64,000 nt of DNA from an uncultured bacterium (GCA_937996235.1 CALKVK010000015.1:29744-93743); one strand, 5' to 3'; positions 12,309 to 64,000 are shown, counted from the stretch's first letter. Made by a program: numbers and translations. Notes: generated by a model from the sequence alone, not told the origin.

Positions 12309-12402
12309 GACGCCCTTTCTCGGCTGCCTCACACGTCCGAAGGTACTCTGGACCGTTCCCGAGACCGCCCGCCCCGCGCAGAGGGGCGCACGGAGATCCC
12401 CG

Positions 12403-14106
12403 ATGAAATCCTCCAACCTGTTGCTCGTCGCGTGGTGCGCGCTCGTCGCCGTGGTGGCGTTCTTCCTCGTGCGCGCGATCCTCCCGGGCGACACGCCGCC
12501 GAACCCGGACGAGGCCGTCGTCGGTCCGCTGAGCCCGGGTCCGGAGACGGGCTCGAAGACCCCTGGACCGCGTCATCCGGACGGCGGACCCGCCGGCCCC
12601 CGCGACACGCCGCAGCGCCGCAAGAACCCCGTCGTCCTCGGCCGCGTCGTCGACGGCGACGGCAACGCCGTGCCCGACGCGACCGTGCGCATCGCGCTGC
12701 CCGTGGAGAGCGTCCCGGCGGCGGAGACCTCGTCGCCCGAGGACATCGCGTTCCTCTACTCGCTGCTCATCGTCATGGACGAGGACATCGAGCGCCCGCG
12801 GCCGTTCGCCGCGTTCGGCAAGAGCCTCTCGGGCGCCGCGGGGGCGCGCGCCGGCGCGGCGGAGCTCGCGCACGTGACCACGGGCGCCGACGGCCGGTTC
12901 GAGTGCCCGGTGCCCGGCGGCGGCGGACGCGGCCCGTTCCGCGTGACCGTCGAGTCCGCGCTCGGCAAGGCGTCGGCGCAGGGCGTGCAGCCGGACGACG
13001 AGATCGAGCTGACGGTCGGCCCGGTGGCCGCCGTCACCGGCACGGTCACGAGCGGCGGCAGCAACGTCGGGGTGGCGGGCGCGATCATCGTGCTCGACGA
13101 CGGCGAGGGCCGGCACACGGCCACCTCCGCCGCCGACGGCAGCTTCCGCATCGAGGGCGTGGGCCCCGGCAGCTACCTCGCGAACGTGGCCGCGACGGGT
13201 CAGCCGCCGCTCATGGACGCCACCGTGAAGGTGCTCCCGGGCCGGCCGCTCGAGCTGCGCCTGCCGCGCGGCACCACGCTGCACGTCGTCGCGGTCCTGA
13301 CCGCGCTCGACCCGGAGGACGTCCAGGGCGACCGGCCGCTGGCGGACGCGCAGATCGCCGTGCTCCACCAGGACACGCTGCAGTACGTCCTCGGGAAGAC
13401 CGACGCGAACGGCGTCGTCGACTTCGACGGACTGCCGCCCGGCACGTACTCCGTGAGCGGCCGCGGTGCGCGCGCGATCCCGTTCGGCGAGGAGATCGTG
13501 AACGTCACCGGCGAGCAGCTCCGGCAGGAGGTCGAGCTGTCGTTCGACCCCGCCGTGGACACGGAGGTGACGGTCGTCGACGAGGGCGGCGCGCCGCTCG
13601 CGGGGATGACGTTCTACACCGCCAACGTGGACGAGATGTACGACGCCGTCCGCTCGGTGCGCGTGCCGGGCCAGACCGACGCCCAGGGACGGTTCACGTT
13701 CCCGTTCGAGTTCGAGGGACCGCGCGCGCTGCTCTTCGGGTTCAAGAAGGGCTTCGCGATGGTGCGCGTCTACCCCGAGAGCCACGACGAGGGCGCACCC
13801 ATGCGCGTCGTCGCGCACCCGGCCGTGCGCGTCCACGGCCTCGTGAGGACCCCCGAGGGCACGCCGGTGCCGGACGCGCTCGTGCTGCTCGACGTCGAGC
13901 CCGACGACGTCGACGGGTTCGACGACGACCTGAGCGTGCAGATCCGCTCGGGCCCGGACGGCCGCTACGACTTCCCCTACCTGCCGCGCGGCGCCGTCTA
14001 TCTCTCGGCGGAGCTCGGCGAAGAGGCGTGGAGCGACGACATCGAGATCGAGATGGTCGACGGGAAGTCCGAGTACGAGCAGGACATCGAGCTGGAGGTC
14101 GAGTAG
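12403..14106 (+). CDS. Secreted/anchored protein with repeated carboxypeptidase-regulatory-like (CarbopepD_reg/Ig-like) domains
   Basis: N-terminal TM/signal (LLLVAWCALVAVVAFFLV). There are repeated segments of the form TGADGRFE / SAADGSFRIEGVGPGSY / KTDANGVVDFDGLPPGTYSV / TDAQGRFTF. Confidence 0.6.
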   Translation: MKSSNLLLVAWCALVAVVAFFLVRAILPGDTPPNPDEAVVGPLSPGPETGSKTPGPRHPDGGPAGPRDTPQRRKNPVVLGRVVDGDGNAVPDATVRIALPVESVPAAETSSPEDIAFLYSLLIVMDEDIERPRPFAAFGKSLSGAAGARAGAAELAHVTTGADGRFECPVPGGGGRGPFRVTVESALGKASAQGVQPDDEIELTVGPVAAVTGTVTSGGSNVGVAGAIIVLDDGEGRHTATSAADGSFRIEGVGPGSYLANVAATGQPPLMDATVKVLPGRPLELRLPRGTTLHVVAVLTALDPEDVQGDRPLADAQIAVLHQDTLQYVLGKTDANGVVDFDGLPPGTYSVSGRGARAIPFGEEIVNVTGEQLRQEVELSFDPAVDTEVTVVDEGGAPLAGMTFYTANVDEMYDAVRSVRVPGQTDAQGRFTFPFEFEGPRALLFGFKKGFAMVRVYPESHDEGAPMRVVAHPAVRVHGLVRTPEGTPVPDALVLLDVEPDDVDGFDDDLSVQIRSGPDGRYDFPYLPRGAVYLSAELGEEAWSDDIEIEMVDGKSEYEQDIELEVE

Positions 14107-50860: not shown

Positions 50861-51149
50861 CCATCTGCCTGTTCGTCCCCGCGCGGGGCCCGGACACGAC
50901 ACGAGAGGGCCCGCGCGCATGCAGTTCCCCACACTCCCGGAACTCCTCCTCCGCGCCCGCGCGTCACGCGCCCGCGGATTGGTGACGAATGTTGCGCCGC
51001 CTCCGGCGCATGGCTACGATCCGGCGCCGACTCGTCCGGACTCCCTCCGGGGACGCGGAACCGCGGCGTCCGAGCGGCGCGCGGCGTCGCTCGCCGGGCG
51101 CGCGGCGGCATCGTGGCGCGCCCGTCGCGCCCCATCGACCGAGGTGACC

Positions 51150-54134
51150 ATGCCCCGCCGTTCGCTCCTCCCGCGCTTCGTCCTCGTGGTCGCCGGGCTC
51201 GTCGCGGCCTGCGGCATCGCCCACGCGTACGAGGACGACTTCGAGTTCGCGCAGGCGCTGGCGGACCGCGGCTACACCGACCTCGCGGAGCAGCAGTTCC
51301 GGGCCCTGCTCTCGGACCCGAAGCGCAGCGCGAAGGAGAAGGCCGAGGGGCAGTACGGGCTCGCGATCATCAAGCGCATCGACGCGCTCGCAGCGGCACG
51401 CGAGACGAGCGAGCGGCGCCGCAGGCCGCTGAAGGAGGTCCTCGACCTCTTCCGCCAGGCCGACGCGGCGATCGCCTCGTTCATCGAGGCCAACGCCGCG
51501 CACCAGCGCGTGCTCGAGGCGAAGCTCGACCGCGCGAACCTGATCACCGACCGCGCCAACTACATCAACCTCGCGATCGAGCGCGGCTGGCTGCCGGCGG
51601 ACGTCTCCGAGGGCGATCTGCAGAAGGAGGTCGCGCAGGGCTACGACACGGCGATCTCGCTCCTGCAGGCCGTGCAGGACAAGGCGAAGAAGGACGTCGA
51701 GGGCAAGGCGCTCGGCACCGAGGAGTACGAGGACGCGCAGGAGCGCCTGGGCCTCGTGTGGCTGCACCGCATCGTGGCGCTGTACGGCAAGGGCGCCGCG
51801 CTGCCGCGCGGCGACACGAGCGGCGTCGCCGCGCTGAACGCGGCGATCTCCGAGGTCACCGACTACCTGTGGTCGTTCGACGGCACGCTGCGCGGCCTGT
51901 GGGCCTCGTACTACGGCGGGCTCGCGAACTGGAAGCTCGACCGGACGACGGACGCCGTGCGCGACATGGGCGACGTCACGGGGTACGTGAGCGAGTCCGA
52001 CGGCGTCCCGGCGGCGCGCGGCGTCTCGCTGCAGGCGTACGAGATGCTCGGCACGATCGCGCTCGACGCCGCCGACCGCAAGGGCGAGGAGGAGCTCGCG
52101 CGCACGGCGCTGGCGCGCCTCGACCGCCTGCCCGGACAGTGGCCGACGTACCTCGACGACGCCGCCGGGCAGCGCGCGGCGGTGTCGCGCGCACGTCTCC
52201 TCGCTCGTGCGCAGCGCACGCGCGAGGCGATCGAGCTGCTGCAGAACGTCCTGAAGAAGGCCGACGAGAAGCACACGGGCGTCGACGGCGCCGCGGGCGA
52301 GCTGCTCGCCGAGCTCCTCACGTCGACCGCGTCGGGCGGCGTCAAGCTCGACCCGGCGCTCCTGAACAGGATCGCGATCGCGAAGTGGCGCGACGGCGAC
52401 TACCCCGGTGCGATCCGGGCGTTCCAGGGCGTCATCGGTGCGTGCCGCACGCCCGAGCAGCGCGACGAGTTCGCGTGGGACGCGTGGGACTACATCGGCC
52501 GCTGCTACGGCATCGAGGAGCGCTGGTACGAGGCGTTCCTGGCGTTCGACGCCATCGAGAAGGCGTGGCAGGCGGACCAGAAGAGCGCGAAGCTCGCCGA
52601 GATCACGCAGGAGACCGGCTGGAACCGCGCGCAGGTCGTCGGCAAGCTCGGCATCGTCACGAAGGACGCGGCGGAGTCGGCGCGGCTCAAGGCGTGGGCG
52701 AAGGAGCTCCTCGACGAGTTCGCGCGCAACCACCCGGAGAGCCCGCGCAACCAGGGCGCGGAGCTGCAGGCCGCGACCGAGAAGCTGCGCGACGCGCAGG
52801 GCATGCGGCGCACGGGCGACTACGCCGGCGCCCTCGCCAAGTACGACGAGGCGATCGCCGCCCTCACCGCGACCGACAAGGGCAGCAGCCAGATCGACAA
52901 GGTCGAGGCGCTGATCGCGCAGGCGCGCCGCGAGACCGCGCGCTGCCTGCACGAGCAGAAGGACGACGCCGGCGCGGTCAAGGCGCTCGACGAGGCGCTG
53001 CGGCTGTCGCGCGCGTGGCTCGCGAAGCAGCGCCCCGCGGCCGAGGTCTCGACGGTGCGCCAGGCGCGCGCCGCCGGCGAGTCCATCGCGCTCACGAACA
53101 TCCTGACCGCACTGGCGGAGAAGGCCGACTACGTCGCGCAGGACCAGCGCAAGGCGGTCTTCGAGGAGCTCCTGAAGGAGATCGACGCCAAGGGCGCCGA
53201 CTTCCTGCGGGCCGTGAGCCGCGGCCAGACCCTGCTCGACCAGTGGCGCACGGAGGCGCTGATCGGCACGGACCAGGTCGAGAAGGCGGAGAAGCTGCTG
53301 CAGGACCTGCTCGCCAAGGACCCGGATCTGGCGAACGGCCCCTACCTCGCCGCGCTGGTCGCGCGCGCGCTCGAGACCGAGGCCAACACCTGGCTCGACA
53401 AGGGCGACGAGGGCCGCTACCGCACGCTCATGCTGCGCTCGGCGCGCCTGCGCGAGTACGCGATCACCAAGGCGGGAGACCCGAGCCCCGAGTCGTACCT
53501 CTCCCTCGCCTCCACCTTCCGGAAGTCGGGAGACCTCGAGAAGGCCGAGGAGTACTACCGCAAGGCCCAGGAGGCCTACGCGGGGCGCGGCGACGACGAG
53601 CGCGCCCGCGCCGTGCGGCTCGAGCTGATCAACCTGCTCGTGGACCAGCGCAAGTTCGAGGACGCGATCCGGCCGCTCGAGGTCGAGCTCGTCCCCGACC
53701 AGGGCGCGCGCCTCGCCGTGCTCGACCGCCTCGCGAAGGACGACAGCCTCACGAAGGAGGAGCTCGAGAAGCTCCTCGAGACGATGTCGCGCAACCGGCG
53801 CGTGCTCGACGTGCTGGCGCGCGCGTACGTCGAGGCGGCGCGCGACGACAAGGACCTGCTGCGCTCCGTCAACCTGACGAACGTGCTGCTGTACTGCCAG
53901 CCCGACGAGGACAAGTACGGTCCCGACTGGGTCGAGTACCAGCTCCGCCTCTCCACGGCCTACTTCAAGTACGGCGCGCTGAAGAACGACCCCGAGGCCT
54001 TCAAGAAGGTCGAGCGGCTGATCCAGACGCGGCTGGTCGTGCAGAACCTGCTCGACACGTGCAACCAGCTCGTGCCGGGCTCGAAGAAGAAGTTCGAGGA
54101 CCTGCTCGCCCGCGCGAAGAGCGGGGGCAGGTAG
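51150..54134 (+). CDS. Large (994 aa) all-helical TPR-like lipoprotein
   Basis: Signal plus lipobox MPRRSLLPRFVLVVAGLVAACG. There are many TPR/Sel1-like helical pairs, e.g. YAGALAKYDEAIAAL...LSLASTFRKSGDLEKAEEYYRKAQEAY. The R-rich 77 codons upstream in the track ORF were rejected. Confidence 0.65.
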   Translation: MPRRSLLPRFVLVVAGLVAACGIAHAYEDDFEFAQALADRGYTDLAEQQFRALLSDPKRSAKEKAEGQYGLAIIKRIDALAAARETSERRRRPLKEVLDLFRQADAAIASFIEANAAHQRVLEAKLDRANLITDRANYINLAIERGWLPADVSEGDLQKEVAQGYDTAISLLQAVQDKAKKDVEGKALGTEEYEDAQERLGLVWLHRIVALYGKGAALPRGDTSGVAALNAAISEVTDYLWSFDGTLRGLWASYYGGLANWKLDRTTDAVRDMGDVTGYVSESDGVPAARGVSLQAYEMLGTIALDAADRKGEEELARTALARLDRLPGQWPTYLDDAAGQRAAVSRARLLARAQRTREAIELLQNVLKKADEKHTGVDGAAGELLAELLTSTASGGVKLDPALLNRIAIAKWRDGDYPGAIRAFQGVIGACRTPEQRDEFAWDAWDYIGRCYGIEERWYEAFLAFDAIEKAWQADQKSAKLAEITQETGWNRAQVVGKLGIVTKDAAESARLKAWAKELLDEFARNHPESPRNQGAELQAATEKLRDAQGMRRTGDYAGALAKYDEAIAALTATDKGSSQIDKVEALIAQARRETARCLHEQKDDAGAVKALDEALRLSRAWLAKQRPAAEVSTVRQARAAGESIALTNILTALAEKADYVAQDQRKAVFEELLKEIDAKGADFLRAVSRGQTLLDQWRTEALIGTDQVEKAEKLLQDLLAKDPDLANGPYLAALVARALETEANTWLDKGDEGRYRTLMLRSARLREYAITKAGDPSPESYLSLASTFRKSGDLEKAEEYYRKAQEAYAGRGDDERARAVRLELINLLVDQRKFEDAIRPLEVELVPDQGARLAVLDRLAKDDSLTKEELEKLLETMSRNRRVLDVLARAYVEAARDDKDLLRSVNLTNVLLYCQPDEDKYGPDWVEYQLRLSTAYFKYGALKNDPEAFKKVERLIQTRLVVQNLLDTCNQLVPGSKKKFEDLLARAKSGGR

Positions 54135-54152
54135 CCCGTGAGGGACGCAACG

Positions 54153-55316
54153 ATGCCGACGACCCGGAACACGCTCATCCGCCCTGCCGCCGCCCTGGCG
54201 CTCGCCTTGGCGCTCGGCTCACCGGCGCGCAGCGCGGACGACCACGCGGCCGCCGCCGGTCCGCCGCCGGACACGATCGTGTACGAGGACGGCGGCGAGC
54301 AGAAGTCGCGCACCGACGTCGTCGTCGAGAGCGCCGACTGGGACGCCGTCGCCTACAAGGCCGGCGCGCGCTCCGCGTCGCAGCCGGGCAACACGGTCGT
54401 CGAGGTGCGCTGGGGCGACGCGCCCCCGGAGTACGCCGTCGGCTGGCGCGCCGTCGCAGGTCGCGACGGTGCCGCCGCCCGCGACGCGTTCAACGCGTGC
54501 CTCGCCGCGAAGGCGGCGGGAGTGGTCTCGCGCCCGTGGATCGACGAGTACGCGCAGATCGGCCTCGGCGAGGCGTGCCTCCTGCTCGCCGCCGCCGAGA
54601 AGGGCAAGACGTCGGCGGCCGTCGACGCGTTCACCGCGGCGCAGAAGGCGAACCCCAAGAGCCTGATGGCGGATCGCATCCTGAAGGGGCTGGCCGAGGC
54701 CGCGCTGATCGCGGGCAAGCCGGACGAGGCGCGCAAGCAGAGCGACGCGCTCCTCTCGGCGGGCCGCACCGCGCGGCGCCCGGAGTGGGAGATCGACGCC
54801 CTCTTCCTGCGCGCCGACATCGCGCGTCAGGCGAAGAACCCGGCCGAGGTCTCGCAGGCGTACGAGGAGGCGGCCCGCGTCGCGGAGCAGCAGGCGGGCG
54901 CCGCGCGCGCCCCGGCGGAGCGCCAGCGCTTCGAGCGCCTGCGGCGCCGCGCGGCGGCGTCCGCGGGCTGGGTGCTCGTGGACCAGGCGCTCGAGACCAA
55001 GGCCCCGGCCGACTTCGACCGGGCACGCGACTACTTCCAGGGCCTGCCGGGCAAGCTCGGACAGGTGCCGGAGGTCCTCTCGTCGGTCGAGAACGCGACG
55101 GGCGTGATCAAGCTCGCCGCCGGCGACACGTTCGGTGCGCTCCACCACTTCCAGACCACCGAGGTGCTGCACTTCGGCGTTCCGGACGAGGTGGCGCGGT
55201 CGCTGTGGTACCAGGCCGAGTGCTGGGACAAGCTCGGCGACACCGCACAGAGGGACGCGCGGCTGCGCGACCTTCGCAAGTACTATCCCAAGTCAGAGTG
55301 GGCCCGGAGGAAGTAG
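54153..55316 (+). CDS. Periplasmic TPR-repeat protein (387 aa)
   Basis: Signal MPTTRNTLIRPAAALALALALGSPARSA. It ends in TPR-like helices (...ARSLWYQAECWDKLGDTAQRDARLRDLRKYYPKSEW). Confidence 0.6.
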   Translation: MPTTRNTLIRPAAALALALALGSPARSADDHAAAAGPPPDTIVYEDGGEQKSRTDVVVESADWDAVAYKAGARSASQPGNTVVEVRWGDAPPEYAVGWRAVAGRDGAAARDAFNACLAAKAAGVVSRPWIDEYAQIGLGEACLLLAAAEKGKTSAAVDAFTAAQKANPKSLMADRILKGLAEAALIAGKPDEARKQSDALLSAGRTARRPEWEIDALFLRADIARQAKNPAEVSQAYEEAARVAEQQAGAARAPAERQRFERLRRRAAASAGWVLVDQALETKAPADFDRARDYFQGLPGKLGQVPEVLSSVENATGVIKLAAGDTFGALHHFQTTEVLHFGVPDEVARSLWYQAECWDKLGDTAQRDARLRDLRKYYPKSEWARRK

Positions 55317-55405
55317 GGTCTCGCGCACGCCGACGTGGGGTCCGTCGGCGGGCGGGATCGAGAGACGCCTCCGGAACGAGGGCTTACAGCCAAGGAGTGC
55401 CCTGC

Positions 55406-56140
55406 ATGCGCAAGTGGAAGAGCAACCTGACCGCCGGGCTGGCGGTGACGTTCATGACCGCGCTGCCGGCCGTGACCGCGTTCGCCCAGGACGCGGCCCC
55501 GGTGGTCGCGCCCGAGGACGAGGTGACCATCGGCAAGGTCATCGCGTGGGGCGGCGTCGTCGGCGGCGTGATCATCCTGATCTCGATCACGATGGTCGCG
55601 CTGGTCATCGAGCACTTCGTGTCGATCAAGCGCGACAAGATCGTGCCGCCCGAGATCATCGACGAGATCGAGGCGCTGTTCGAGGAGGAGGAGTACCAGG
55701 AGGCGCTCGAGCTCTGCGAGTCCGAGCCCAACTACCTCACGAACATGCTCGCGGCCGCGCTCCCGAAGATGAACGCCGGCTTCGACACGATGGAGGAGCA
55801 CCTCGACGAGGCGCACAGCCTCGAGGCGATGAAGCTCCACACCAAGATCAGCTACCTGTCGCTGATCGCGAACCTCGCCCCGATGCTCGGCCTGTACGGG
55901 ACGGTGCAGGGAATGGTGGGCGCGTTCAACAAGATCGTGCAGCTCGGACCGGCCGTGACGCCGAAGGACCTCGCCTCGGGCGTGCAGCAGGCGCTCATCA
56001 CGACGCTCTTCGGACTCGTCGTGGCGATCCCGGCGATCGGCTTCTTCTTCTACTTCCGTAACAAGGTCGTGCGGATCACCTACGAGTTCAAGGCGATCGG
56101 CGAGGACCTCATCGAGCGGTTCCGGCCGCAGCAGCGGTAA
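55406..56140 (+). CDS. exbB: MotA/TolQ/ExbB proton-channel protein with a cleavable N-terminal signal peptide
   Basis: RBS AAGGAG. MRKWKSNLTAGLAVTFMTALPAVTAFAQ signal. Three TMs plus the conserved LAPMLGLYGTVQGMVGAF...TTLFGLVVAIPAIGFFFYF motif. Confidence 0.85.
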   Translation: MRKWKSNLTAGLAVTFMTALPAVTAFAQDAAPVVAPEDEVTIGKVIAWGGVVGGVIILISITMVALVIEHFVSIKRDKIVPPEIIDEIEALFEEEEYQEALELCESEPNYLTNMLAAALPKMNAGFDTMEEHLDEAHSLEAMKLHTKISYLSLIANLAPMLGLYGTVQGMVGAFNKIVQLGPAVTPKDLASGVQQALITTLFGLVVAIPAIGFFFYFRNKVVRITYEFKAIGEDLIERFRPQQR

Positions 56141-56146
56141 CGCCAC

Positions 56147-56671
56147 ATGGCGAAGAAGCGCACGACTGCGGAGGCCGGGAAGGACGTCGAGGGCGGGGCC
56201 GAGATGGACATGACCCCGATGATCGACATCACCTTCCAGCTCATCGTCTTCTTCCTCGTCGCGAACGACCTGACCCGCAAGGAGGTCGAGGAGCTCAAGC
56301 TCCCGCAGGCGATCTACGGCAAGGAGGACAAGGCGACCGAGAAGGACCGCCGTGTGATCATCAACATCCTCGCCCCGGAGGACAGGGCGAACCCGCCTGA
56401 CATCCCCGAGGTGAAGGTCAAGGGCAAGCCCTACGGACTCGACGACCTCGAGCGTCTGATGCGCACCGAGGCCGACTCGAAGCGCGAGACGGACGGTCCG
56501 GGTGCGCCGAGTGCGATCTTCGTTCTGATCCGCGCCGACAAGGACACGCCGTGGCAGCACGTCCAGTACGTGATGCAGGTCTGCGCCGACCCGTCGATCC
56601 GCATCTACAAGATGCAGTTCGCGACGACGAAGCGTGACGACGGCAAGGCCACGTCGGCGAGCGGTGAATAG
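56147..56671 (+). CDS. exbD: ExbD/TolR family protein (paralog 1)
   Basis: MDMTPMIDITFQLIVFFLV TM region plus a periplasmic ExbD domain. Confidence 0.85.
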   Translation: MAKKRTTAEAGKDVEGGAEMDMTPMIDITFQLIVFFLVANDLTRKEVEELKLPQAIYGKEDKATEKDRRVIINILAPEDRANPPDIPEVKVKGKPYGLDDLERLMRTEADSKRETDGPGAPSAIFVLIRADKDTPWQHVQYVMQVCADPSIRIYKMQFATTKRDDGKATSASGE

Positions 56672-56680
56672 GAGCATCCC

Positions 56681-57199
56681 ATGAACGAAGAAGAGATGCC
56701 GAAGCCGAACATGACGCCGATGATCGACGTCGTGTTCCAGTTGCTGGTCTTCTTCCTCGTCTCGATGAAGTTCAAGACGCTGGACATGAAGATCGAGGCG
56801 TTCCTGCCGAAGGATCGCGGGCTTTCGCCCGAGATCGCGACGCTCGAGGAGAAGCCCAAGATCACCGCTGTGCTCAAGCGGAAGGTCGAGGGCGGAGGCC
56901 TCGAGAACAGCACGCGCATCCGTGTGCAGAACGCCACCCTCGGAACCGGCGACAAGCAGGAGACCTGGGATCTGCTCACGCAGCAGGCCAAGGCGCTCCT
57001 CGACCGCCACAAGGCGAACGGCGGCGCTGCGGAGGACGTGAAGGGCGAGGTCGATGCCTCGGCCCTCGTGCCCACGGGCGACGTCGTGCGTGCGGTGGAC
57101 GCGTTCCTCGCCGCCGGACTCCAGGACGTGACGTTCATCGGCACGCCCCCCCCGAACTCGAACCTGGCGAAGATCCGCAAGGCCGCGGGCACTCGCTGA
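56681..57199 (+). CDS. exbD: ExbD/TolR family protein (paralog 2)
   Basis: PNMTPMIDVVFQLLVFFLVSMKFKTLDMKIEAFLPK. Confidence 0.85.
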   Translation: MNEEEMPKPNMTPMIDVVFQLLVFFLVSMKFKTLDMKIEAFLPKDRGLSPEIATLEEKPKITAVLKRKVEGGGLENSTRIRVQNATLGTGDKQETWDLLTQQAKALLDRHKANGGAAEDVKGEVDASALVPTGDVVRAVDAFLAAGLQDVTFIGTPPPNSNLAKIRKAAGTR

Positions 57200-57389
57200 G
57201 GGTTCAGGACCCCGTATCGACCCCTTGCGCACACTCCGTGCCGCCCCGGCCCTGCCGGGGCGGCACACCGCGCTGCCTCCCCTGCCTGCCTGATCCCGAG
57301 TCGTGAGCGGGTGCTCGCGCGACGGCGCGACGCCCTCCCCCACCGCCTGTCCCGTCCCCGGCCGCGCGCGCGAGCGCAGGAGGCCGGAC

Positions 57390-57902
57390 GTGAGACGCCG
57401 ACGCGAAACCGACTCGAACCGCGACGCCACGGCGGCGTCGCCGGACCTGACGCCCCTCGTGGACGTCACCTTCCAGCTCCTCGTGTTCCTGCTCGTCGTG
57501 AACGACATCACGGCCCGGCAGAACGAGGAACTCGTGCTGCCGGAAGCGCAGCACGCGACCGAACTGCGCCCCGACGACGCGACGTGCACGGTCAACGTGC
57601 TCGCGCCCACGGACCCCGCGGACGACGCCGCGCCGCCGCGCGTGCGGGTGTCCGGGCGGACGCTCGACCTGCCGGATCTCGTCGACACGCTGCGCGCGTT
57701 CGCGGACCGCGAACGTGACGGCCGCGAGCCGCGCGCGCCGAGCGCGTCGGCCGTCCTGATCCGTGCCGACGCGGGCGCTCCGTGGCGCCACGTCCAGCTC
57801 GTCATGCAGGCCTGCGTCGACGACGACGTGCGCATCGTGCGCGTGCAGTTCGCGACGCGCGGCCCGGCCACCGAACCCAGCCGAGAGGAGGCACGCCGAT
57901 GA
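57390..57902 (+). CDS. exbD: ExbD/TolR family protein (paralog 3, divergent)
   Basis: GTG start with GGAGG 7 nt upstream. DLTPLVDVTFQLLVFLLVVNDI. The C-terminus RADAGAPWRHVQLVMQACVDDDVRIVRVQFAT parallels paralog 1. Confidence 0.7.
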   Translation: MRRRRETDSNRDATAASPDLTPLVDVTFQLLVFLLVVNDITARQNEELVLPEAQHATELRPDDATCTVNVLAPTDPADDAAPPRVRVSGRTLDLPDLVDTLRAFADRERDGREPRAPSASAVLIRADAGAPWRHVQLVMQACVDDDVRIVRVQFATRGPATEPSREEARR

Positions 57903-58354
57903 ACGACGACACACTCCCCCGCCCGAACATGACGCCGATGATCGACGTCGTCTTCCAGCTCCTGGTCTTCTTCCTCGTGTCGATGAAGTTCAAGACGCTC
58001 GACATGAAGATCGAGGCGCAGCTGCCGAAGCAGGTCGGGCTGAGCGACACGTTCGTCGATCCGCCGCCCGTCACACGCGTCTCGGCCCGGCTGGTCCGCA
58101 GCGGCCGGGCGACCGACCTGCGTCTCGACGGGCAGCGCCTCGGCACGGCCGACGATCCCGCGACGTGGGGGCGGCTCGCCGCATCGGCGCGCGGCATCCG
58201 CGCGCGGCACCTCGGCGCCGGTCTCGCGCCCGACGACCTCGTCGCGGAGGTCGACGGCAGCCGCGACGTCGCGACCGGCGACGTCGTGCACGCCATCGAC
58301 ACGCTGTTGGCAGCGGACATCGGGAACGTCCAGTTCCGCGGTGCCCGTCGGTGA
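57899..58354 (+). CDS. exbD: ExbD/TolR family protein (paralog 4)
   Basis: ATG overlapping the upstream stop (ATGA). PNMTPMIDVVFQLLVFFLVSMKFKTLDMKIEAQLPK. The 5' 96 nt are ~94% identical to paralog 2. Confidence 0.8.
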   Translation: MNDDTLPRPNMTPMIDVVFQLLVFFLVSMKFKTLDMKIEAQLPKQVGLSDTFVDPPPVTRVSARLVRSGRATDLRLDGQRLGTADDPATWGRLAASARGIRARHLGAGLAPDDLVAEVDGSRDVATGDVVHAIDTLLAADIGNVQFRGARR

Positions 58355-58391
58355 GAGGCACACCGCGTGCGAAGCACGCGGTGCGCCTCTC
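58353..58391 (+). terminator. Strong intrinsic terminator hairpin after the exbB-exbD x4 operon
   Basis: 18-bp stem GAGAGGCACACCGCGTGC / GCACGCGGTGCGCCTCTC (one mismatch) with a GAA loop. It overlaps the stop codon. Confidence 0.6.
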
Positions 58392-58668
58392 GCTCTAGTG
58401 GGGTGCACGCGGGCGTGCGTCACCTACGCAGGTGACGTCCGCCCCCTCGGTCGCACTGCCCGCGAGCACCATCCCGCCGGCACTGGCGCGTGCGGGGCAC
58501 GCGCGCGCCGGCGGGCGGCGGCCCTCTCGTTGCGAAGGGGACGGTCCTCGCGCAGGCTCGTGACGCAACGGGGAGTTGCGACGGGGACACTCCTGCCGCC
58601 GCGCGCTCGGGCGTCGGACGCGCCCCGCGATGACGATCGGGCGACGGAGCGCTGGTAGTGTCGCCGGG

Positions 58669-60552
58669 ATGCCGTCGCGTTCCGGTCCGCTGGTGGTCGT
58701 CGCGCTCTGCGTGGCGGGCGTCGTGGCGACCGCGCTCGCCTTCGTCTGGCGCGCGGAGCGACGCCCCACCGCCGTCGTCCTCATCAGCATCGACACGCTC
58801 CGCGCCGACCACGTGGGCGCCATCGCGGCGGCGACGGGCACCGACGGTGCTGCGGATCTGACGCCGCACCTCGATGCGCTCGCCGCCCGCGGCGCCGTCT
58901 TCACGCGGGCGTGGACGACCGCGCCCCTGACGGTCCCGGCGCACGCCAGCCTGCTCACGGGGCTCGTGCCGCCCGTGCACGGGCTGCGCACGAACTCCGG
59001 CGCGGCACGCATCCCGCCTGCCGAGACGCGGCGCTACCCGACGGTCGCCGAGGCGCTCCACGAGCAGGGCTGGCGCACCGGTGCGTTCGTCTCGGCGTCC
59101 GTCCTCCGCGCCGACCGCACGGGCCTCGCGGCCGGCTTCGACGTCTACGACGACGTCCCCGCCGCCGCCCCCGGGGCCCTGCACGACGCGGAGCGGCGCG
59201 CCGAGGAGACGGTCGCCGCGGCGCTCGCATGGCTCCGAGGCGGCTCCGGCAGCACGTTCCTGTGGGTGCACCTGTTCGACCCGCACGCTCCCTACGCCGC
59301 ACCGCAGCCCTGGGGCGCCGGCGCCGAGCACTCCGCGGACGCGACGGGGTACGCCGGCGAGGTCCGCTACGTCGATCATGCCGTCGGGCTCCTGCTCGAC
59401 GGACTCGCCGCCGCGGGCTACCGCAACGCCGCCGTCGTCGTCGTCGCGGACCACGGAGAAGCGCTCGGCGAGCACGGCGAGCCGACCCACGGCTTCCTGC
59501 TCCACGAGGCGACGCTGCACGTGCCGCTCCTCGTCGCTGCGCCCGGACTCGTGGCCGCAGGCCTCGTCCGCGAGGACCCGGTCTCGATCGCGGACGTCGC
59601 GCCGACGCTCCTCGGCTTCGCCGACGTGCCGGTGCCTCCGGGGCTCGGCGGGCGGCCGCTGTTCGCCGCCGGCGCACCGGGCGAGCGCCGGGCGCCCTAC
59701 GCCGAGTCGCTCTACGGCTGGGAGACCGCGCGCTGGGCGCAGGTGTTCGCGCTCCGCGACGGCGACCGCAAGCTGGTGGACGCGGGCCCGCACACGCTCG
59801 AGGCCGACCTCGCCCGCGACCCGCGCGAGCTCGCCGTCACCAGGCGCGCGGTCCCGTCGCCCGGGACCCCGCCCGCGGACGCGACGGCGGCCGCCGCGGA
59901 GCGCGACGTCGTCGAGTCCCTCCGGTCGGTCGCCGCCCTGCCGCCCTTGGACGCCCCGTCGGCCGCCGCAGCGCCGGAACTCGCGGGCGGCTCGTACTGG
60001 GCACCCGCCGGCACGGGAGCGACGACGATCCTCTCCCGCGCCGAGAACGCCGCCCTGCCGAGCCCCTACGACCGGATGGACGTCGTCCGCGAGCTCGACG
60101 CCGCCCGCGCGCTCCTCGCCGGGGGCGACCCCGCCCGCGCCGTGACCGCGTTCGCGGCGGTCGTCGCGCTCGACCCGGCGAACCCGCAGGCCCGCCAGTG
60201 GCTCGCACGGGCCCGGCTCGGAGCCGGCGACCCGCTCGGCGCGGCGGCCGACTTCCGGGCGGCGTTCGGGCTGGGCTGGCAGGACGCAGCCTGCGTCGCG
60301 AAGGCGCTGCAGGCCTCGGCGGCCGGCGTCGAGTCCGACCCCGAGGAGGCCGGGCGTGCCCTGAAGTTCCTGGAGGAGGCGCGCGGGAAGGGCCTCCGGA
60401 GCGACGGTCCCGTGTACGTGTTCGAGGCGCTGCTCCTGGCCGCGGCCGGACGGACGGACGCCGCCCGCCGCGCCCTCGCGGCGGCGCGCCGCGAGCCCCC
60501 GACGCCCTGGCTCGAGAAGGCCGTCCGGGAGCTCGGCGAGGCGCTGCGATGA
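58669..60552 (+). CDS. Membrane-anchored sulfatase/alkaline-phosphatase-superfamily protein with a C-terminal TPR domain
   Basis: TM LVVVALCVAGVVATALAFVW. VVLISIDTLRADHVG ... PAHASLLTG ... HLFDPHAPY ... VVVVADHGEALGEHG are sulfatase/LTA-synthase-type metal-site motifs. TPR-like helices follow from ~aa 480. In-frame alternative starts exist at 58576 and 58630. Confidence 0.7.
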   Translation: MPSRSGPLVVVALCVAGVVATALAFVWRAERRPTAVVLISIDTLRADHVGAIAAATGTDGAADLTPHLDALAARGAVFTRAWTTAPLTVPAHASLLTGLVPPVHGLRTNSGAARIPPAETRRYPTVAEALHEQGWRTGAFVSASVLRADRTGLAAGFDVYDDVPAAAPGALHDAERRAEETVAAALAWLRGGSGSTFLWVHLFDPHAPYAAPQPWGAGAEHSADATGYAGEVRYVDHAVGLLLDGLAAAGYRNAAVVVVADHGEALGEHGEPTHGFLLHEATLHVPLLVAAPGLVAAGLVREDPVSIADVAPTLLGFADVPVPPGLGGRPLFAAGAPGERRAPYAESLYGWETARWAQVFALRDGDRKLVDAGPHTLEADLARDPRELAVTRRAVPSPGTPPADATAAAAERDVVESLRSVAALPPLDAPSAAAAPELAGGSYWAPAGTGATTILSRAENAALPSPYDRMDVVRELDAARALLAGGDPARAVTAFAAVVALDPANPQARQWLARARLGAGDPLGAAADFRAAFGLGWQDAACVAKALQASAAGVESDPEEAGRALKFLEEARGKGLRSDGPVYVFEALLLAAAGRTDAARRALAAARREPPTPWLEKAVRELGEALR

Positions 60553-60637
60553 GCGCACTCCGGACACGTCGCGGAACCCCGGATTCGAGGCTGCGGCAGC
60601 GTGACAGACGGGTGACCTGCGAGGCGTAATCCGTGTT

Positions 60638-61062
60638 GGATTGAATGGTTGACCTCGTGTCCGAGCGCTGGCTAGCATCCGCGACTCGGGCACGGCCGGG
60701 CAGGCTCCGGATGCAGATCGGGAGAGGGTCCGGCAGGCTCGCGTGAGGCGGAGCAGCAGAGCGGCCGGATGGGCCGCGAGGCGGCCGTCGGGCGCGGGCC
60801 GGGGCACGTGACCGGACCGAAGGAACGGAAGGGCATGTCCTCCTCGATGGCGAGGAGGGCCGGAGGGAGGCCGCGCAGGCCGCCCCTCGTGGCCCGGCGA
60901 TCCAGCAGGATCGACGGGCGTGCAGGGCAGAGCCGGGTCGCTGATGCGATCCCGGACGGGAAGGACGGGCCCGGACAGGAAGAACGGGCACGGCGCCGTG
61001 CGGCCTCCGGGCTCGCACGTGGGCCGGTGCCTCCGCTGCGGAGGCACGTCACTCAGGTTTTT
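60638..61062 (+). ncRNA. Putative long GGA-rich leader or small RNA upstream of secretin 2
   Basis: Candidate promoter TTGACC - 17 - CTAGCAT (60638..60672). A ~380-nt purine-rich tract carries ~14 GGA motifs, including tandem 16-mers GGAC(G/A)GGAAG(G/A)ACGGG at 60954..60987. It ends with a 9-bp hairpin GTGCCTCCG-CTG-CGGAGGCAC (61027..61047) and TTTTT (61058..61062), ~110 nt before the ATG. Confidence 0.25.
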
Positions 61063-61173
61063 GGGCTGGAGCTTTCAGGGCAACGCGACCGGCGCGTCCG
61101 GCCGCAGTCCCGGGGCGTGCGGACGCGGGGTCCGACGCGCACCGGCACACCTCGACGGGAAGGGCAAGCACCT

Positions 61174-64000
61174 ATGACGGACTCCCGGACTCGTTCTCTG
61201 ACCCTCGTGGCCGCGCTGGCGACGATCGGCATGGTGGTCTCGGCGGCCTCCTGCACCGGTCCTGCGGACAAGAAGGCCGAGAAGCCGAGCAAGGCCTCGC
61301 CGGCGGTCGCGAAGGGCGACAAGACGTCTGCCATGCCGGGCGGCGGCGGCACGACCGCTGCGGGCGCCCCGGCGGCCGCGCCCGCGGACGGCGGCGCGAC
61401 GACGTCCGGGAAGCCGGCGACGCCTCCCGCGGCGCCTGCGGCTCCGGGCGGCACCGCGGCGAAGCCGGCGACCCCGGCGACGACGACGCCCGTCGCCCCG
61501 GCCGCGACGACCGCGCGCGCCGACGGCGGCCCGGTCGCCCCGCCCAAGCCGGGCGCTCCGCTGCCGGCGCCGGTCCCGCCGCGCGGCGGCCGCGACTCCG
61601 GCGCGACCACGCCGGTCCCGCCGGCCCCCACGGCCGAGAAGCCGACGACTCCGCCCGCCCCGCCCGCGCCGACGGCGACCGGCCCGACGCCGCCGCGTCC
61701 CGTGCCGCCGGCTCCGACGACGACCACGCCGCCCGTCGCGCCGCCGCCCGCCCCGCCGGCTGCGCCGACCGCGACCACGCCGAAGCCCGTCGAGCCGAAG
61801 CCCGCACCGGTCGCGACCGCGCAGAGCGAGGCCGATGCGCTCCTCGCGCAGCGCATCAAGGAGCTCGAGCTCGAGCGGCAGAAGAACGCGATCCTCGTCG
61901 AGGACTACGTCGCCCACGCCCGTGAGGCGGCGAAGCGCTTCGACCACGAGTCGACGGCCGACTGGGCGTCCCGCGCGCTCGAGCTCGACCACTCGAACCA
62001 GGAGGCCGAGAGCCTCCTGCGCACGGCGCGCGCCGCGATGGGCGAGCGCGACTCCGACATCGCGAGCCTCGCCGAGCTGCTGTCGCGCACGGCCTCGGTG
62101 AAGCGCGAGCAGGCGCAGTTCCAGGCGCAGCGCTACTGGACCTCCGCACAGGAGGCGAAGAAGGGCGGCGACTTCGCGAAGGCCGAGCAGGACCTCGAGA
62201 GCTGCCTGACGGTCATCGAGCACGATCCCTCGGGCATCAACTGGGGCGCGATGCCGACCTCGGTGCGCAACGAGCTCGCGGACGTGCGGAAGCTGCGCGC
62301 CGACGCCGACAAGGCCGCACGTGCCAGCGCCGCCCGCGACGCCTACAAGTCGGTCAAGGAGGAGGAGGCCCGGCGCCGCCTCGCCGAGGTCGAGAAGCGC
62401 AACGCGCTCTTCGAGGCCGCGATGACGGCGTTCGAGAACGAGCAGTACGCGTCGGCCGAGACGCTCCTGCAGGACTACCTCGCACTGGTGCCCGGCGACA
62501 CCAACGCGCAGCAGCTCCTCGCCACGGCCACGCGCGCGAAGCACGAGCGCGCGTCCGAGGAGTCGCTCAAGCTGCAGCGCGAGCGCTTCCGCGAGTGGCG
62601 TCTCGACATGCGCGAGACGACCGTCCCCTACCACAAGATCCTCAACTGGCCGTCGCAGGAGCACTGGGACCGCATCACGCAGCTCCGCGCGGACGCGGGC
62701 GTGCTCGCCGACCGCGAGCCCGACTCGCCCGACACCGCGGCGACGAAGAACAAGCTGCGCAGCGAGCGCGTCACCTTCCAGTTCCAGGGCGCCGAGTTCG
62801 CGGAGGTCATCCGCTACATCGCCGACACGCGGCAGATGAGCATCGTGATCGACCCGCAGGTCGCGCAGGAACTCGAGGCGATCCCGATCACCCTGAACCT
62901 GCAGGGCGTCGCGGTCGAGGAGGCGCTCAAGACGATCAACCGGATCGCCGGCGGCCTGACCTACGTGGTGAAGGGCGGCGTCGTGGTGATCACGAAGCCG
63001 GAGTTCGCCCGCGAGGACCCGATCGTCCAGGTGCACTCGGTCGGCGACCTGACCGTCGCGCTGACGAACTTCATCGCGCCGAACCTCCAGCTCCGCCCGG
63101 CCGGCGCCGAGGAGAACGAGGACGCGCCGATGTTCGGTGCCGCGCAGGAGGGCGTGACGTCCTTCGGCGACACCGACGCGCTGATGACGCTCATCCAGGG
63201 CAACGTCGCCGACCCCGACTACTGGACGGCCGACGGCGTGAGCATCGCGCCCTCCGGCACCGACAAGCTCGTCGTCGTCGCGGCGCCGAACGTCCAGCGC
63301 GAGGTCTCCGCGTTCCTCGACGACCTGCGGGCCTTCTCCGGCCTCGTCGTGACGATCGAGACGCGCTTCCTGACCGTCACCGACGACTTCCTGCGCGATG
63401 TCGGCATCGACATCCGCGGCATCGGCAACGGCACGCCCGGCCGCCTCGCGCTGCTCGACGACGTCACGAACGGCCTGCTGAACAACGCGTCGGCCGGCTT
63501 CGACAACGGCGGCGTGGGCCTGCCCGCGAACGCGAGCTCGGCTCCGTCGGCCGGCGCCTTCTACAACAACAACTCCGACGGCGACTACCGCGCCCGCACG
63601 GAGAACGTGTTCGACCAGGCGCTCGGCACGCGCATCACCAACATCGGCGGCGCCGTGCTGCAGTACACGCTGGTCGACGACACCGACCTGTCGCTGATCC
63701 TGCGCGCCGTCGAGAAGAGCCAGGAGGGCCGCGTCCTCCAAGCGCCGAGCGTGACGGTGTTCAACACCCAGCGCGCCAACATCACGCTGATCAACCAGCT
63801 CACGTTCGTGCAGGACTTCGACGTCGAGGTCGCCCAGACGGCGTTCATCGCCGACCCGATCATCGGCATCATCCAGGACGGCGTGGTGCTGGACGTGCAG
63901 CCCACGGTCAGCCACGACCGCAAGTACATCACCCTGCAGCTCCGCCCGACGATCGCGAACCTCGTGCGCCCGATCCCGACGTTCACCACGTCGCTCGGCG
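61174..64000 (+). CDS. Lipoprotein secretin 2 (paralog of 48057..50696); 3' end beyond the window
   Basis: Lipobox MTDSRTRSLTLVAALATIGMVVSAASC. ~190-aa P/T/A-rich spacer (…KPVEPKPAPVAT). STN-like VTFQFQGAEFAEVIRYIADTRQMSIVI. Secretin motifs are RFLTVTDDFLRDVGIDI...VLQAPSVTVFNTQRANITLINQ...VLDVQPTVSHDRKYITLQLRPTIANL. The frame is open to the window end, and the gene is not in the track because it has no stop. Confidence 0.8.
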   Translation, partial: MTDSRTRSLTLVAALATIGMVVSAASCTGPADKKAEKPSKASPAVAKGDKTSAMPGGGGTTAAGAPAAAPADGGATTSGKPATPPAAPAAPGGTAAKPATPATTTPVAPAATTARADGGPVAPPKPGAPLPAPVPPRGGRDSGATTPVPPAPTAEKPTTPPAPPAPTATGPTPPRPVPPAPTTTTPPVAPPPAPPAAPTATTPKPVEPKPAPVATAQSEADALLAQRIKELELERQKNAILVEDYVAHAREAAKRFDHESTADWASRALELDHSNQEAESLLRTARAAMGERDSDIASLAELLSRTASVKREQAQFQAQRYWTSAQEAKKGGDFAKAEQDLESCLTVIEHDPSGINWGAMPTSVRNELADVRKLRADADKAARASAARDAYKSVKEEEARRRLAEVEKRNALFEAAMTAFENEQYASAETLLQDYLALVPGDTNAQQLLATATRAKHERASEESLKLQRERFREWRLDMRETTVPYHKILNWPSQEHWDRITQLRADAGVLADREPDSPDTAATKNKLRSERVTFQFQGAEFAEVIRYIADTRQMSIVIDPQVAQELEAIPITLNLQGVAVEEALKTINRIAGGLTYVVKGGVVVITKPEFAREDPIVQVHSVGDLTVALTNFIAPNLQLRPAGAEENEDAPMFGAAQEGVTSFGDTDALMTLIQGNVADPDYWTADGVSIAPSGTDKLVVVAAPNVQREVSAFLDDLRAFSGLVVTIETRFLTVTDDFLRDVGIDIRGIGNGTPGRLALLDDVTNGLLNNASAGFDNGGVGLPANASSAPSAGAFYNNNSDGDYRARTENVFDQALGTRITNIGGAVLQYTLVDDTDLSLILRAVEKSQEGRVLQAPSVTVFNTQRANITLINQLTFVQDFDVEVAQTAFIADPIIGIIQDGVVLDVQPTVSHDRKYITLQLRPTIANLVRPIPTFTTSLG

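Follow-up and report, generated by a model that had tools for sequence, protein, structure and literature searches.

A probable long secretin leader with recurrent GGGCA sites in an uncultured bacterium related to Planctomycetota: a candidate for post-transcriptional control

What is the role of the gap between a sulfatase gene and a secretin gene in the 64,000-nucleotide (nt) stretch of DNA analysed here (uncultured bacterium, GCA_937996235.1 CALKVK010000015.1:29744-93743; 74% G+C; hereafter the window)? The original prediction, made from this DNA alone, had described an intergenic region of ~620 bp, which agrees with the 621 nt (60553-61173) that we measured from the stop codon of the sulfatase-TPR gene to the ATG of the secretin gene. 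It had read positions 60638-61173 as either a CsrB-like RNA that titrates CsrA or a secretin leader with an attenuator. The public relatives closest to the genes of the window are metagenome-assembled Planctomycetota. Our comparisons with related loci point to a different reading, to which we give roughly an even chance: the interval is a lineage-expanded 5' leader of the secretin mRNA, with a conserved promoter and with sense-strand GGGCA sites for a post-transcriptional regulator that we infer from those sites. The main parts of the locus are as follows.

58630-60552, + strand: membrane-anchored sulfatase gene with C-terminal TPR repeats (Pfam Sulfatase, 4e-38); stop codon at 60550-60552
60602-60616, + strand: direct repeat TGAC-N7-TGAC (period 11 bp), which lies ~70-83 bp before the predicted start of transcription
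60636-60678, + strand: promoter block, found by scan and conservation; TTGGATTGAATGG, then TTGACC (60649-60654), an 18-nt spacer and TAGCAT (60673-60678)
60685-61173, + strand: predicted 5' untranslated leader of the secretin mRNA, 489 nt compared with 167-209 nt in nine relatives
61174-64000, + strand: lipoprotein secretin gene, ATG at 61174-61176, extending past the window end; 80% identity to its ortholog at locus L001

We compared the window with ten orthologous loci that were found through their secretin and sulfatase genes (L001, L026-L031 and L039-L041), plus L036, a near-duplicate of L001. The leaders sampled numbered 10-17, all from metagenome-assembled genomes; a set of 13 covers three ortholog groups, and the leaders of the two distant groups are not alignable with those of group 1. 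In the relatives the sulfatase-secretin gap is 299-347 nt long, which leaves ~270-290 nt extra in the window. Three blocks are nearly invariant in the alignment, namely TGAC-N7-TGAC (60602-60616 in the window), TTGGATTGAATGGTTGACC-N18-TAGCATCCGCG-N4-GGGCACG (60636-60694) and CGACGGGAAGGGCAAGCACCUAUGA.GGA.UCCCGGACUCG (61152-61193). Alignment of the gap with those of the relatives is limited to the promoter block, the leader's 5' end and the final ~70 nt before the ATG, and a profile of the relatives' leaders has a single match in the window (61102-61194, E 7.7e-14).

The promoter is well defined. A consensus scan of 60300-61500 returned the -35 element TTGACC and the -10 element TAGCAT listed above as the sole sigma-70-like site in 1.2 kb, and none in 50 shuffles. 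From the position of the -10 element, transcription is predicted to start at ~60685, 489 nt 5' of the ATG; this supports the earlier proposal of an unusually long leader with its own promoter ~490 nt upstream, and that promoter proves to be conserved in 10 related loci. Specifically, 60636-60683 is 92% identical to L001 over 48 nt, while the adjoining sulfatase proteins are just 57% identical, a disparity that strongly supports a functional, regulated promoter. Across the 10 relatives the promoter block is nearly invariant next to sulfatase proteins of 54-61% identity, its 19-mer is unique in the window, and distant orthologs have TTGAYC-17/18-TAGAAT at the equivalent place. The upstream TGAC-N7-TGAC is invariant in 8/8 sequences of alignment A2 and recurs with equal spacing upstream of the secretin promoters at the distant orthologous loci L006, L007, L008 and L011, where the leaders no longer align. 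It is a candidate transcription-factor site with a putative regulatory function.

The geometry of TGAC-N7-TGAC is like that of sites bound by winged-helix response regulators. An A/T-rich 9-mer (ATTGAATGG, 60640-60648; group-3 counterpart CTATTGAACGG) at or just upstream of the -35 element is kept across distant ortholog groups in surrounding DNA of 60-75% G+C, and may serve as an UP-like element or as a second site for a protein. A sigma-54-like reading of TGGCAC within GGGCAC, considered by eye in two leaders, was rejected because the spacing of the GC element was unfit in both.

Downstream of this promoter, the leaders have the pentamer GGGCA in common. It occurs 8 times in the window leader compared with 2.1 expected (p = 0.002), and 4-6 times in each of nine relatives compared with ~1 expected (p <= 0.006). 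To avoid choosing a motif by eye, all 1024 5-mers were scored over the 13 leaders: GGGCA came out on top, with 52 copies for 10.0 expected (z 14.3) and two or more in 13/13 leaders, and the next-ranked 5-mers (TGGGC, GGCAT and GGCAA) overlap it. In 17 leaders we counted 71 GGGCA against 0 TGCCC. The copies are irregularly spaced and have the flank consensus W-GGGCA-H-G, with U or A before GGGCA in 48 of 62 instances. In the 579 kb made up of the window and the related loci, 20 clusters reach at least four GGGCA per 200 nt, and 15 of them are secretin leaders; four others fall within what looks like coding sequence or within a repeat array, and the fifth (L026) is at the sulfatase-secretin gap, reaching into its leader. 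The secretin leader is also the sole place in the 64-kb window, on either strand, with at least five GGGCA per 250 nt. In group-3 leaders (L006, L007, L009, L010 and L011) a second word, (U)CGGCAA, recurs 60-110 nt before the ATG and resembles both the group-1 AGGCAAGC block and GGGCAAGC of the ribosome-binding block; GGCA, and not the full GGGCA, may be the core that is recognised.

The placement of the motif relative to the start codon is also kept. The copy nearest the AUG is at -12 in 11/17 leaders and at -8 to -16 in three more, and the three leaders without an intact proximal copy (L030, L031 and L041) have a degenerate GGCAA or no motif. In the window, copy 8 (61162-61166) stands 12 nt before the AUG within the invariant ribosome-binding block CGACGGGAAGGGCAAGCACCU (61152-61172), which is 100% identical to that of L001. 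GGGCA was found at 0/35 of the other gene starts listed in the related loci, many of which have a Shine-Dalgarno sequence of the GGAG/AGGA type, and we therefore rejected the idea that these genomes use it for ribosome binding in general. Codons 2-7 of the secretin gene (A.GGA.UCCCGGACUCG; 61177-61193) are conserved at the nucleotide level in all group-1 relatives, synonymous positions included. They are able to pair with CGGGAAGGG of the ribosome-binding block, with no covariation and with ordinary stability; a hairpin that would sequester the Shine-Dalgarno sequence (RNAalifold, CGGGAAGGG with CCCGGACUCG of codons 4-7) was discarded, as all its pairs are invariant and its z is +0.9 relative to shuffles.

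A further copy of GGGCA is displayed in a hairpin. In group 1, one GGGCA occupies the 7-nt loop (NGGGCAU) of a 5-9 bp hairpin whose distance from the AUG is 75-86 nt; the loop is predicted to be unpaired with a probability of 0.76-1.0 in 10 relatives (>0.95 in 7/10). In an alignment of 11 sequences, 5/7 pairs of this hairpin show compensatory changes, and 0/500 shuffles reach its covariation score (0.39 vs 0.19); when the partners are slid by 1-3 columns, pairing drops from 80% to 11-46%. GGGCA is also found in hairpin loops in the distant groups (L005, L006, L009 and L011), on stems of unrelated sequence. Taken with a strand asymmetry that has no exception, this display in loops speaks for a motif that acts in the RNA. 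The nearest candidate in the window is the hairpin at 60795-60819, 372 nt from the AUG, where MAFFT puts the invariant GGGCA column. It is a possible counterpart of the family hairpin, although homology is uncertain as its covariance model (R1) finds no significant match. A long-range pairing between 5' UCUGGG and CCCRGG before the ribosome-binding block was set aside, since its covariation is weak and the pairing is not evident in the window.

On this basis we defined a category, the conserved secretin leader of a Planctomycetota clade, which is specific to this analysis and is not a curated family. Its features are a promoter block TTGGATTGAATGGTTGACC-N18-TAGCATCCGCG with TGAC-N7-TGAC upstream, a ribosome-binding block CGACGGGAAGGGCAAGCACCUAUG with GGGCA at -12, at least four sense-strand GGGCA without TGCCC, and an NGGGCAU heptaloop hairpin ~80 nt before the AUG that is preceded by the AGGCAAGC block. 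The window has the first two and the third (8 copies, 0 TGCCC), and the last is not recognisable in it. Its leader contains the following elements.

60688-60692, + strand: GGGCA copy 1 (CUCGGGCACG) at the leader 5' end, nearly invariant in relatives (UCUGGGCACG)
60698-60702, + strand: GGGCA copy 2
60761-60777, + strand: window-specific hairpin GCGGCC-GGAUG-GGCCGC (-17.1 kcal/mol, z -2.9)
60795-60819, + strand: hairpin of the predicted fold, with GGGCA copy 3 (60802-60806) in its 9-nt loop GGCACGUGA; unpaired probability 0.75
60831-60835, + strand: GGGCA copy 4 (GGAAGGGCAUG)
60837-60860, + strand: window-specific 10-bp hairpin GUCCUCCUCG-AUGG-CGAGGAGGGC (-18.5 kcal/mol, z -3.0)
60925-60929, + strand: GGGCA copy 5
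60951-60993, + strand: tandem 19-nt repeat CCCGGAC(G/A)GGAAG(G/A)ACGGG, 2.3 copies (TRF), with GGGCA copy 6 (60986-60990) inside
61027-61047, + strand: palindromic GC hairpin GUGCCUCCG-CUG-CGGAGGCAC, 9 bp with a 3-nt loop, centroid -17.4 kcal/mol, absent from relatives
61058-61062, + strand: T5 run, starting 10 nt past the stem, 111 nt from the ATG; GGGCU follows directly
61078-61082, + strand: GGGCA copy 7
61102-61173, + strand: 3' part of the leader, homologous to the family leader (from the nhmmer family-profile match given above)

The leader has a predicted folding energy of -290.5 kcal/mol, better than shuffles (z -3.7 to -4.0) mainly because of three strong window-specific hairpins. The region is purine-rich, as had been claimed (purine fraction 0.58 on the + strand, GC skew up to +0.22, AT skew up to +0.40). 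The tandem repeat and a third related copy had both been seen correctly, the repeat unit being 19 nt and not the 16 nt that was proposed: units 60951-60969 and 60970-60988 are 89% identical, and the copy at 60806-60828 is looser (78%). The tandem unit and the ribosome-binding block have the exact 10-mer GACGGGAAGG in common, which suggests that the leader grew by local duplication of its own sequence. The second tandem unit also has a weak, not significant likeness to the group-1 AGGCAAGC block (10.9 bits). The tandem repeat, the CCUCC/GGAGG hairpins and the hairpin with T5 are all in sequence that has no counterpart in any of the 10 relatives. A dispersed repeat, mobile element or miniature inverted-repeat transposable element was rejected as the source, the gap having no second copy in the window or in 25 loci.

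The anatomy, conservation, motif statistics and hairpin covariation described above are observed directly, and from these we propose the following mechanism, in which the transcription start, the RNA-level action, the factor and the direction of control are our reading of the sequences. Across an uncultured Planctomycetota clade, the secretin leader would be transcribed from a dedicated sigma-70-type promoter downstream of the conserved TGAC-N7-TGAC. The family leader would be ~170-210 nt long and carry several sense-strand W-GGGCA copies: at its 5' end, in the loop of the covarying hairpin ~80 nt from the AUG, and at position -12 beside a weak Shine-Dalgarno sequence. In this genome, the leader would have grown to 489 nt through lineage-specific additions, including the 19-nt tandem duplication related to the ribosome-binding block, which would have brought in purine-rich, GGA-containing sequence and raised the GGGCA count to 8. 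A sequence-specific factor, most simply an RNA-binding protein, would bind the GGGCA sites cooperatively, and its presence on the AUG-proximal site would set the level of secretin translation.

By analogy with CsrA-type leaders, such binding of a factor to several sites likely controls translation initiation. Leaders repressed by CsrA (of the E. coli glgC and B. subtilis hag type) likewise have several copies of a short G-rich motif, one in a hairpin loop and one by the Shine-Dalgarno sequence or AUG, a layout that lets a dimeric RNA-binding protein span sites and keep the ribosome from binding. They differ in that the motif here is GGGCA and not A(N)GGA, GGA is not enriched, and the leader is far longer than typical CsrA targets. 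A second comparison is with specialised NusG paralogs (RfaH with ops/JUMPStart, LoaP and UpxY), whose recruitment sites are found in long leaders of envelope and secretion genes, in sense orientation only. In those systems the element is longer (12 nt for ops) and present once or twice, whereas the 5-nt core here recurs 4-8 times, including at the ribosome-binding site.

More specifically, and only as a tentative proposal on which we would not insist, W-GGGCA may be the recognition element of an undescribed post-transcriptional regulator in this uncultured Planctomycetota clade. This regulator, a protein that binds RNA or else a small RNA carrying UGCCC seeds, would act on an outer-membrane lipoprotein secretin, linked to an ExbB/ExbD-TPR-sulfatase cluster, through several leader sites that include a loop-presented one and one 12 nt before the AUG; with its 489 nt and 8 sites, the leader of this genome would be an amplified form, able also to buffer the regulator as a cis-encoded sponge. 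The leader is a candidate cis-regulatory RNA motif that has no match in Rfam. To our knowledge, post-transcriptional control has hardly been described in Planctomycetota, and not at all in these uncultured high-G+C lineages.

Several points weigh against an RNA-level regulatory leader and need to be considered with caution. That transcription begins at ~60685, and that the RNA is neither processed nor terminated on the way, are predictions, and the GGGCA copies may work as DNA operators that follow the promoter. No canonical hairpin can be recognised in the window, where covariance model R1 has its best match at 60969-61013 (10.9 bits, E 0.12), and for most GGGCA copies there the fold predicts partial pairing (unpaired probability 0.20-0.75). 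The 10-17 leaders are phylogenetically related, and the GGGCA counts are thus not fully independent. Among the sulfatase-gene neighbours used to locate loci no closer relative was found that might share the 270-290 nt specific to the window. Lastly, we know of no factor that binds GGGCA.

A mostly neutral explanation is one that we consider rather unlikely: the extra 270-290 nt would be debris of slippage or duplication in a tolerant leader, and the GGGCA copies would be DNA operator sites for a transcription factor, or inactive in the expanded part. It would account for extra sequence that is unique to this lineage and contains a recent tandem duplication, and for the loss from view of the family hairpin; the conserved DNA site TGAC-N7-TGAC, moreover, points to transcription-factor control of the promoter. 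However, the expanded part has four more GGGCA (60831, 60925, 60986 and 61078) where ~1 is expected, and the 71:0 strand asymmetry, irregular spacing and display in a covarying loop fit RNA better than DNA. The folding of the leader relative to shuffles (z -3.7) is a further argument against debris.

The original prediction of a GC hairpin plus U5 ~110 nt before the ATG was accurate as to the elements (61027-61047 and 61058-61062), and it raises the question of whether transcription halts early at this hairpin unless an alternative structure or a factor prevents it. We regard such an attenuator as improbable. In its favour, the 9-bp hairpin is strong, runs of five T are rare at 74% G+C, and termination in high-G+C bacteria can take place at hairpins whose U-tracts are poor; intrinsic-terminator attenuators, too, have a GC-rich hairpin and then a U-run inside a long leader. 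In those, however, the U-run follows the stem within 0-2 nt, whereas here a short U5 comes after 10 nt, and because of this distance the terminator scan reported no terminator-like site in 60300-61500. The hairpin is no stabler than shuffles of its surroundings (z -0.78), and it is found in no orthologous leader among the relatives, so it cannot be a conserved regulatory principle. No competing antiterminator pairing was identified, although no systematic search for one was made in the window. As the T5 run directly precedes GGGCU and U or A precedes GGGCA in most instances, the run may be a motif flank rather than a terminator tail. The case for an attenuator is weak, and the region is not a canonical one.

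The CsrB-like reading fares worse, and we find it very improbable that a discrete RNA of ~380 nt, from the promoter to the hairpin and U5 ending at 61062, titrates CsrA through its GGA motifs. CsrB, CsrC, RsmY and RsmZ are likewise purine-rich RNAs of a few hundred nt with many GGA and several hairpins 3' of a strong promoter. The interval 60638-61173 has 21 GGA, more than the ~14 first reported and 2.5x the window average for such intervals (8.5 +/- 3.5), and the 17 GGA in 60685-61062 give a density close to that of CsrB/CsrC, for which 13-22 are quoted (PMC6546359). Dinucleotide shuffles of the interval, however, contain 17.6 +/- 2.8 GGA, and 151/1000 of them reach 21; the GGA richness is thus a by-product of purine-rich composition. 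Enrichment over composition was found neither in the window nor in nine relatives (p 0.12-0.97 over all of these, 0.12 in the window). In the predicted leader fold, 3/22 GGA are in hairpin loops (60767, 60822 and 60978), the first of these in the hairpin at 60761-60777 with an unpaired probability of 0.97, and the other 19 are outside them; mean unpaired probability is ~0.42 for GGA compared with 0.32 overall. The GGA thus mostly do not sit in loops, as the check proposed with the CsrB-like idea would have had it.

Other hallmarks of these RNAs were also sought. Rfam gave no relevant match at E <= 10 for the window region or at E <= 1 for five related loci. The GacA/UvrY box TGTAAGN6CTTACA, with up to 3 mismatches, matched the window only at 55415, which is chance level, and not at the leader. 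With a U-run of just 5 nt, 10 nt from the stem, no terminator closes the putative RNA, whose sequence is contiguous with the ribosome-binding site of the gene. The GGA-rich repeat and the hairpin, and with them the segment that would form most of the small RNA, are absent from all relatives. A tblastn search with three CsrA sequences found no csrA in 565 kb of window and related loci, which says little, as just 64 kb of this DNA is from the genome in question. CsrA is reported to be widespread in Planctomycetota (PMC13443453), which would suit a sponge; sponge RNAs are a gamma-proteobacterial trait, however, and outside that class, Planctomycetes included, CsrA is thought to be antagonised by FliW instead (PMC4682653). 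We conclude that the region is not a member of the CsrB/Rsm family. More generally, a purine-rich stretch of a genome with 74% G+C looks like CsrB when only GGA is counted, and composition-matched controls together with orthologous loci are required to tell the two apart.

Hidden coding sequence is scarcely credible, whether as a secretin extended from an ATG at 60835, as a minus-strand ORF (open reading frame; 60672-61052), or as an 85-aa ORF coupled to the secretin gene:

60920-61177, + strand: 85-aa ORF, judged non-coding, with its TGA stop inside the ATGA of the secretin start

That overlap, a secretin frame open from ~60675, and third-position G+C of up to 0.93 in 60750-60900 could be taken in its favour, and the ATG at 60835 is preceded by a copy of the ribosome-binding motif; but the lipoprotein signal peptide begins at 61174, in line with the starts in all relatives, the N-terminal extension shows no conservation, gap lengths among relatives are not multiples of three, and no Pfam match was found. 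The leader as a whole is without coding signal or conserved upstream ORF, and its small ORFs have no Pfam match. We agree that the 85-aa ORF is non-coding: its frame is closed or without a start codon in L001 and L031, for which reason translational coupling via ATGA was rejected, and its peptide is conserved across the ribosome-binding block alone, not upstream.

The surroundings of the leader are conserved as well. Upstream of the sulfatase gene, the window has three ExbD genes and two TPR proteins, and the order in relatives is TPR, unknown, ExbB, ExbD x3-4, sulfatase, secretin. The same arrangement (large TPR protein, TPR/unknown, ExbB, 3-4 ExbD paralogs, membrane sulfatase-TPR, lipoprotein secretin) is seen in window 50919-64000 and in L026-L031, and in many metagenome-assembled Planctomycetota genomes. 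This recurring order suggests an uncharacterised envelope machine in which an ExbBD-type motor is coupled to a secretin; a literature search on a secretin/ExbD/sulfatase cluster returned nothing relevant. The secretin itself begins with a signal peptide and lipobox, ending ...SAASC, and has a Pfam Secretin domain that is cut by the window end. The lipobox is followed by a low-complexity Pro/Ala/Thr linker of ~190 residues (61250-61800, G+C up to 0.875), whose length varies greatly between orthologs.

A metagenome scan with the promoter pattern recovered one true relative (L036), and five other matches were due to chance. One of these, on the minus strand of L033 (Ga0194120_10022771), is an unrelated CRISPR array with the 37-nt repeat GTCTGGTTGACCCCGCCGCTACCAAGTCGATAGCATC. 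At ~12300-12900 on the minus strand of L012, a tandem array of ~100-nt units with GGGCAAGCAAGGGCACGCC adjoins the orthologous secretin locus of a distant relative.

If the reading of this interval as a lineage-expanded leader with GGGCA sites is true, it would provide a testable handle on a new regulator-target pair, consisting of a 5-nt core, a fixed placement relative to the start codon and a covarying display hairpin. It would also be an example of a leader that grows by duplication of its own binding block, and it would bear on how a conserved envelope machine, made up of a secretin and ExbBD-like motor proteins, is switched on.

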